The position numbers and the translations under genes are program-made. Shown one piece after another: positions 43,111 through 43,470 of a stretch of DNA of 64,000 nucleotides. Numbering within the stretch: the stretch's first letter is position 1; each line of letters starts with the position of its first letter. The DNA is from Escherichia coli (GTDB lineage Bacteria > Pseudomonadota > Gammaproteobacteria > Enterobacterales > Enterobacteriaceae): assembly GCF_003334305.1 (NCBI RefSeq), contig NZ_QOWS01000005.1. The stretch is one strand, 5' to 3'. The notes below the pieces were generated by a model. The model did no database searches. It was given only the letters and a program-made list of their open reading frames with translations, and was not told the DNA's origin.

Positions 43111-43151
43111 TTCAATATTAAGGTGGCTATACGTCATCTGAAATTGAAACA

Positions 43152-43180
43152 GGGTGTGTGTGGCATGGTTACGCACACCC
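43152..43180 (+). other. Stem-loop between pilin and chaperone genes (9-bp stem), candidate intra-operon attenuator
   Basis: gggtgtgtg / cgcacaccc inverted repeat 42 nt after the pilin stop; no T-run. Confidence 0.4.
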
Positions 43181-43470
43181 GAGCAATTCACCAATGTGAA
43201 TCTCATTATTAATGAGGAATGGTTTGTATTTGGAGCACTATGAAAAATCACATAATATCTACACGATCAATAAACAACAGTAGTTAAATTTACTGTTATT
43301 TAAAATATTTACTTTGTAGTAAGGTTTTCCTATTAAAAGAGAACCAACATTTTTTACAAACGCATTAAGTCTGGAAACCCGGCGACTCGCCAATGTATTA
43401 GCAACATTTATCGATTGTCTGATGTAACGGTTTTCCCGCTTATCCTCTTAACACATGGAGAATGCATCAG

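Follow-up and report, generated by a model that had tools for sequence, protein, structure and literature searches.

The locus examined here raises the question of what a long non-coding spacer containing a stable hairpin does between the major pilin and chaperone genes of a fimbrial operon, and of how such a spacer arose. The spacer is located at positions 43111-43470 (+ strand) of a stretch of Escherichia coli DNA of 64,000 nt, which is referred to below as the window. The locus is the F9 chaperone-usher operon (fml/yde; also Fml or Yde); the first-pass annotation of this DNA had already named it so, and the gene order, the annotation of the pilin and a promoter matching the site mapped by 5'-RACE in strain CFT073 agree with that. 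The region 43050-43520 matches strain A7 (NZ_CP028767) at 100% identity and approximately 3,600 other complete genomes at 91-98%. According to the PGAP annotation, the genes follow in the order hipB, hipA, a helix-turn-helix pseudogene, 'type 1 fimbrial major subunit FimA', periplasmic chaperone, usher, ydeS, ydeR, ydeQ and ydeP. The major pilin gene fmlA (42547-43110, + strand; c1936 in CFT073 and ECs2113 in Sakai) follows the PGAP call in A7, which is 100% identical over the query, and its product shares 70% identity with K-12 FimA. The periplasmic chaperone gene (43471-44181, + strand; PGAP annotation), whose product is 59% identical to K-12 FimC, is followed by the usher gene (44223-46874). 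Between the F9 proteins and their Fim counterparts, identity ranges from 45 to 70%. The helix-turn-helix pseudogene is frameshifted and occupies 41906-42114, between hipA and the F9 promoter.

A promoter scan gave a match at 42261-42290 (+ strand) with the -35 element TAGTCA, an 18-nt spacer and the -10 element CATAAT. This match corresponds to the F9 promoter determined by 5'-RACE in CFT073 (TAGTCG-18-CATAAT), where the transcription start site is located 251 nt upstream of the pilin ATG (PMC3966885). Since the mapped promoter is located upstream of the pilin gene, the spacer is transcribed within the operon message. In a microarray study of an APEC pst mutant, the pilin (c1936, -3.23) and chaperone (c1935, -3.72) transcripts fell together (PMC2648988), which fits co-transcription of the two genes with some read-through. 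The literature search revealed neither a discussion of the F9 pilin-chaperone spacer nor per-gene F9 transcript levels or 3'-end maps.

In the RefSeq/PGAP annotation the pilin coding sequence ends at 43110 and the chaperone starts at 43471, which gives a gap of 360 bp, the length reported earlier; with an alternative in-frame chaperone ATG at 43462 the gap would be 351 bp. The spacer carries no annotated feature among the RefSeq genomes listed. At least 80% of it was found in 3,572 of 5,426 complete E. coli genomes, and it is single-copy, with a median of one site and a maximum of two sites per genome across 3,657 E. coli genomes at blastn sensitivity. In some E. coli genomes, deletions extend over the pilin gene and the greater part of the spacer (L009) or over the greater part of the operon (L005). 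Related loci were collected via an F9 chaperone scan of one genome per species, which returned one true F9 locus and 78 relatives, mostly type 1 fim, with chaperones 36-69% identical to that of F9. No F9 orthologue outside E. coli was found in this one-genome-per-species scan. Its sole F9 match was a 25-kb contig (JARKOR010000214.1) in a 'Candidatus Nanosynbacter' MAG, with a chaperone 100% identical to that of the window, and this contig is almost certainly E. coli contamination of the bin. Among the 23 loci in which the pilin and chaperone genes are directly adjacent, the spacer lengths are 508, 360 (F9), 204, 178 and 128 bp, and the remainder do not exceed 92 bp. The earlier description of the F9 spacer as unusually long is thus a fair one, since only one of the 23 spacers is longer.

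The most prominent structure of the spacer is a hairpin at 43152-43180 (+ strand), which was taken as the functional core of the spacer on the basis of its fold energy and of its single variable site among 29. Positions 43152-43164 pair with 43168-43180, giving 13 pairs closed by the three-base loop AUG, and the stem starts 41 nt past the pilin stop codon. The first-pass annotation had described a GC-rich hairpin of 9 bp placed 42 nt past the stop; the hairpin and its position just after the pilin gene hold, and its length has been corrected. On the + strand, the allele of the window folds with -21.3 kcal/mol (z = -4.2; 0 of 200 shuffles folded as well) and the majority allele, with C at 43169, with -23.8 kcal/mol (z = -5.3). 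The - strand of this segment folds with only -13.1 kcal/mol for the window allele and -16.0 kcal/mol for the majority allele. There, two or three G-U pairs become C-A mismatches, so that the hairpin is specific to the sense RNA. When its flanking pairs are included, the hairpin ranks seventh in strength among the single hairpins of either strand of the 64-kb window. Of the features of an intrinsic (Rho-independent) terminator, a G+C-rich stem-loop is present (13 pairs, -21 to -24 kcal/mol) and the U-run is absent: the sequence directly 3' of the stem is GAGCAATTCACC / GAGCAAUUCACC, which has no T-run, as had been noticed earlier, and the hairpin was not among the calls of the terminator scan. 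Without a U-tract it is not a canonical intrinsic terminator, which argues against simple intrinsic termination. A weak stem of seven pairs was also predicted upstream of the main hairpin (43121-43139, + strand) by the consensus fold of 13 strains; its support is low, and one of its pairs is G-U in seven strains, A-U in five and broken in one.

Conservation was evaluated in 13 E. coli strains picked across the identity range, a check that the first-pass annotation had proposed for F9-positive strains. The hairpin contained one variable site out of 29 (pi 0.005). In the 41 nt before it (43111-43151) eight sites were variable (pi 0.059), and 45 of 260 sites were variable in 43181-43440 (pi 0.05); pi at third codon positions was 0.052 for the pilin and 0.040 for the chaperone. 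The downstream flank of the hairpin contained approximately 17 substitution sites in 60, counted by hand from the alignment. The estimated binomial P for the conservation of the hairpin was approximately 0.003 relative to the local flanks and approximately 0.04 relative to the whole spacer. The only variable site of the hairpin is 43169, which is T in the window strain and C in the 12 others and forms a G-U or a G-C pair, respectively. The T of the window strain (A7, an orangutan isolate) costs the hairpin approximately 2.5 kcal/mol. No compensatory double change was found in any hairpin pair among these 13 strains of one species, as expected at such low divergence, so the structural argument rests on conservation, strand asymmetry and position. 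In principle, the conservation of the stem could reflect a constraint on sequence and not on structure.

The position of the hairpin is shared with related operons. A hairpin of -10 kcal/mol or stronger was found just past the stop codon of the major pilin gene in 61 of 74 related loci; the median energy was -12.9 kcal/mol, and the hairpin of F9 was the strongest. A hairpin after the major pilin gene is a trait of the family. In addition, GGA is present in or at the hairpin loop of 49 of the 74 relatives and absent from that of F9. A strikingly conserved element was revealed by 50 fimA-fimI intergenic regions, consisting of CA[AG]GGA, a short spacer and then GGGCC-AGGAN-GGCCC, with G-C to A-U covariation in the two basal pairs of the stem. 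This conserved element corresponds to FimR2 (b4838), which is annotated directly after the fimA stop in K-12 (L002:2662-2731) and arises when RNase E cleaves the fimAICDFGH transcript (Raad et al., NAR 2022, PMC9723502). The FimR2-type element follows fimA in Raoultella, Klebsiella, Citrobacter, Kluyvera, Enterobacter, Serratia, Pantoea, Erwinia, Providencia and others, and similar GGA-loop hairpins were also found downstream of the pilin in more distantly related Proteus and Pectobacterium loci. Rfam 15 does not contain the family, since a scan of the K-12 FimR2 locus gave no match either.

A covariance model (R1) was built from the 50 fimA-fimI intergenic regions and tested on held-out loci. 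It recovered L085, L015, L024 and L023 (E <=3e-5) and L043 (E = 0.04), and these held-out matches span Kluyvera, Serratia, Aeromonas and Yersinia. Two of the matched loci have no fimI, namely those of Aeromonas cavernicola (E = 3e-5) and Yersinia massiliensis (E = 0.04). Against the F9 spacer (43111-43470), the model gave no match at E values up to 10 with filters off, and nhmmer profiles of the 5' half, the core and the full FimR2 region gave none either. The F9 sequence has AAGGUGG in place of CA[AG]GGA and contains no GGA anywhere in 43111-43200. A resemblance of the F9 3' UTR to FimR2 that had been noticed by eye (TTCA...AAGG..GC) was not supported, the covariance model and the three nhmmer profiles being negative. 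The F9 hairpin sits at the FimR2 position, yet, judged by its sequence, it is not a member of the FimR2 family.

The gene order of the relatives points to a possible origin of the spacer. The order fimA-fimI-fimC was found in 51 of 79 related loci, including all those with the chaperones most similar to that of F9, and the F9 spacer occupies exactly the position of fimI between the major pilin and chaperone genes. In type 1 pili, the fimI product is the terminator and anchor subunit of the rod (PMC10673952, PMC12122975). A tblastn search of the spacer with K-12 FimI revealed no FimI similarity, an HMM of 51 FimI proteins applied in six frames scored -1.7, where the median of 200 shuffles was -1.8, and no match emerged when the spacer was searched by nhmmer using fimI 3' ends. 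A possible vestige of the fimI C-terminus, which is suggestive only, was noticed at 43383-43427 (+ strand), where RLANVLATFIDCLM is followed by a stop. Scored with a PSSM of FimI C-termini (consensus GAANAQAWFSLTYQ), it ranks first among the 14-mers that precede a stop and is equalled in 2.4% of 2,000 shuffles (P ~0.024), in a post hoc test devised after the match was noticed. The stop is located 43 nt before the chaperone ATG, and the fimI-fimC gap of K-12 is similar (36 nt). In the fimI-less locus of Yersinia massiliensis (L043:3292-3480), the 178-bp spacer contains both a FimR2-like element and a remnant of the fimI C-terminus, SLANAQAWFELTY, and so provides direct evidence that fimI was lost by deletion in this family, and a precedent for such a loss leaving a non-coding gap. 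We infer that the AT-rich part of the F9 spacer is probably a relic of a lost fimI slot, a case that is circumstantial because no significant FimI similarity is left in the spacer.

At its other end, the spacer merges into the translation-initiation region of the chaperone gene. The segment 43414-43470 (+ strand), with the Shine-Dalgarno sequence GGAG at 43457-43460, contained one variable site among 57 in the 13 strains. The low diversity runs on for approximately 200 nt into the chaperone gene and is therefore not specific to the spacer; over the 250 nt of 43414-43664 only five sites were variable in the 13 strains, synonymous sites included. This could be explained by a constraint on translation initiation or mRNA structure, or by the recombination history of the segment. 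A helix was predicted between 43419-43428 and 43465-43474, i.e., GUCUGAUGUA with UGCAUCAGAU, including CUCU paired with GGAG. According to the folding model it would bury the ribosome-binding site of the chaperone gene and reach the first two bases of the start codon, and all its stem positions are invariant in the 13 strains. Depending on which stretch was folded, its z-score ranged only from -0.9 to -3.3; a helix sequestering the ribosome-binding site and start codon was not clearly better than shuffles and was dropped as a candidate.

The reading that we prefer, with a probability of roughly 0.55, divides the spacer into three parts: a hairpin that acts in the sense RNA to protect or attenuate the pilin mRNA and so leads to an excess of pilin, a near-neutral relic of the fimI slot, and a conserved initiation region of the chaperone gene. 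By analogy with other fimbrial operons, a role in the ratio of pilin to accessory transcripts is the most plausible one for the hairpin. In the mechanism that we infer, the spacer would be co-transcribed from the mapped promoter upstream of the pilin gene, and the AT-rich RNA downstream of the hairpin would be cleaved or terminated, perhaps by Rho in the 290 nt of untranslated RNA. The hairpin would then most likely stop 3'-to-5' exonucleases, and it may also pause or attenuate transcription. The outcome would be a stable pilin mRNA in excess of the chaperone and usher mRNA. The approximately 230 nt of AT-rich sequence at 43181-43413, under little or no constraint, would be the remnant at the fimI position, and the last 57 nt or so would serve as the conserved translation-initiation region for the chaperone. 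The type 1 operon offers a measure of such an excess: by qPCR, fimA mRNA exceeded that of fimI approximately 8-fold and that of fimC approximately 12-fold (PMC10673952), and a second study found an approximately 2.5-fold excess (PMC9277811). The first-pass annotation had likewise compared the hairpin with elements that set pilin:accessory stoichiometry. This part of its proposal is supported by a conserved sense-strand structure at the position typical of the family, for which such a role is plausible by analogy; the small ORF and the internal promoter that it had added were not upheld.

Two other readings concern the hairpin itself. It is possible, though unlikely, that the hairpin and the approximately 40 nt before it are cut out of the message by RNase E and act in trans as a stable 3'-UTR small RNA, the F9 counterpart of FimR2. 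The sequence AA/AUU at 43141-43145 fits what we take to be the RNase E cleavage motif. The homologous position of the hairpin, as the most conserved part of the 3' UTR, would suit such an RNA, given that FimR2 itself comes from directly after the fimA stop through RNase E (PMC9723502). However, the F9 spacer gives no match to the FimR2 covariance model at E values as high as 10, both GGA motifs are missing (AAGGUGG replaces CA[AG]GGA and the loop AUG replaces AGGAN), and the 41 nt before the hairpin, which would have to contain the seed, are among the most variable of the spacer (8/41 sites). It is doubtful, too, that such an F9 RNA would be a functional counterpart of FimR2 stripped of the CsrA-binding GGA motifs, with paralogous operons emitting different RNAs and the loss of fimI altering the control of F9 pilus length and anchoring relative to type 1 pili. 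Alternatively, only the ribosome-binding site of the chaperone gene may be functional; on this view the hairpin would be either a relic or an inverted repeat that arose by chance, and would seem conserved because the sample is small and of one species. Diversity within the species is low and no compensatory pair change was seen; moreover, both strands of the 64-kb window together contain approximately 35 hairpins that fold with -19.9 kcal/mol or better, many of them intragenic, and the chance of such a hairpin in any 360 nt of one strand was estimated at approximately 0.1. Yet this hairpin has kept its pairing, with one variable site in 29, where the locus otherwise varies most; it is specific to the sense RNA, it stands out against AT-rich surroundings and it is located within approximately 40 nt of the pilin stop, where 61 of 74 relatives have one. 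We therefore consider a functionless hairpin improbable.

The remaining readings concern the rest of the spacer. The G+C content at 43200-43380 is 25-27%, compared with 45-50% in the flanking genes, which bears out the AT-rich sequence reported after the hairpin. This is close to the 30-33% of the H-NS-bound promoter region upstream of the pilin gene, and F9 is repressed by H-NS (PMC3966885); together with the near invariance of the last 57 nt or so, this would suit regulatory DNA, either an internal promoter for the chaperone and usher genes or a platform for H-NS that helps to silence the operon. The internal promoter suggested earlier was not borne out: no sigma-70-like site (-35/-10 hexamers, 16-18 nt spacing, at least 9/12) was found on either strand of 43111-43470, which is weak negative evidence. 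Outside the hairpin, the spacer varies approximately as third codon positions do, tolerates indels and is mostly unconstrained. In O104:H4 2009EL-2071 (outbreak lineage; L008) a deletion of 27 bp at 43195-43221 (+ strand) removes a small AT-rich hairpin, which is thus dispensable, and leaves the pilin and chaperone genes intact, and natural 1-nt indels were found near 43228 and 43242. This rate of change makes an extended regulatory element unlikely, except in the last 57 nt or so, and the invariant 3' end belongs to the low-diversity stretch that extends approximately 200 nt into the chaperone gene. H-NS binding needs AT-richness and not sequence conservation, so that the conservation data do not decide the H-NS version; regulatory DNA as a whole seems to us a distinctly unlikely explanation. 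A small protein is very improbable. The candidates are the 15-codon ORF that the first-pass annotation had pointed out near 43240 (43240-43287, + strand; MKNHIISTRSINNSS), which has GGAG 4 nt ahead of its ATG, a 44-codon ORF at 43259-43393 and a 48-codon ORF at 43105-43251, both on the - strand. The first is a real reading frame but not a gene, since in two of the 13 strains, GPEC403 and Z30, a 1-nt insertion right after the ATG at 43240 alters the entire peptide, and a longer ORF enclosing it is shifted by upstream indels. In O157:H7 and E189 the 44-codon ORF is cut short by a stop codon, and the 48-codon ORF is frameshifted in eight of the 13 strains and stopped prematurely in two more. Thus, no conserved small ORF was found on either strand, every candidate being broken somewhere among the 13 strains, nor is a gene annotated at the spacer among the RefSeq genomes listed. 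As repeated extragenic palindromes are typical intergenic hairpins of E. coli, a dispersed repeat copy (REP/BIME-like) or a remnant of a small mobile element was also considered, and it is extremely improbable. The hairpin sequence has a single match in the 64-kb window even with three mismatches allowed, the spacer has a median of one place per genome, and the hairpin is presumably unlike the REP consensus; the repeat was rejected because both hairpin and spacer are single-copy. The Rfam scan of 41500-44500 at E values up to 10 gave only chance matches.

The preferred reading, a sense-RNA hairpin with a fimI-slot relic and a conserved chaperone initiation region behind it, can be compared with known systems. 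Like FimR2, the F9 hairpin directly follows a FimA-type major pilin gene, the two operons being paralogous, and both are stable sense-strand hairpins without a U-tract; the abundance of the fim transcript drops across the point at which the FimR2 hairpin is located. The two differ in that the F9 stem has 13 pairs and not 5-7 and starts approximately 41 nt and not approximately 25 nt past the stop, in that F9 has neither of the GGA motifs (CsrA-type sites) and no match to the covariance model, and in that the F9 hairpin is followed by 290 nt of non-coding DNA and not by fimI. In pap, K99 (fan) and other chaperone-usher operons, a stem-loop follows the major subunit gene and the major-subunit transcript is in excess; the studies of Baga et al. 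from 1985 and 1988 reportedly described a processed, stable papA mRNA. The F9 hairpin occupies a comparable place, shortly downstream of the major subunit gene in a fimbrial operon with a polycistronic message. However, the pap and fan hairpins have terminator-like features and have reportedly been demonstrated by experiment, whereas that of F9 has no U-tract, is known from its sequence alone and has no sequence relationship to them. With regard to the proposed mechanism, in which a hairpin without a U-tract shields the upstream cistron from 3' exonucleases and leads to differential expression, the F9 hairpin is like the intercistronic REP hairpins of malE-malF, which are said to stabilise the upstream mRNA (work of Newbury et al. 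from 1987). REP sequences are multi-copy with a shared consensus, unlike the single-copy F9 hairpin.

The hairpin of the F9 spacer is an undescribed example of a well-known element of fimbrial operons in an ordinary arrangement, and nothing in it will surprise a specialist. Nevertheless, 43152-43180 is a concrete candidate element for how F9/Fml could make far more pilin than assembly proteins. The F9/Fml operon has roles in chronic urinary infection and plant attachment, and the practical value of the finding is modest. That F9 has non-coding DNA in place of fimI raises the question of how its rods are terminated. After fimA, the FimR2-type element with its pair of GGA motifs has been conserved well outside Escherichia and Salmonella and is replaced in F9, and its spread bears on the breadth of the CsrA link to fimbrial operons. 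The only related spacer longer than that of F9 is found in Aeromonas cavernicola (L023:1298-1830), where a FimR2-like element comes after an F9A-like pilin gene (63% identity) and a non-coding gap of approximately 445-508 bp, in which no FimI remnant was detectable, separates it from the chaperone gene. Within E. coli, the sfm operon of K-12 also has no fimI, and its sfmA-sfmC spacer (L096:2256-2474) is long (219 bp), AT-rich and unannotated, with a predicted hairpin that begins right after the sfmA stop codon. This spacer is shorter than that of F9, its hairpins are weaker and no sequence similarity between the two spacers was found. Long spacers may be typical of the cryptic fim-like operons of E. 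coli.
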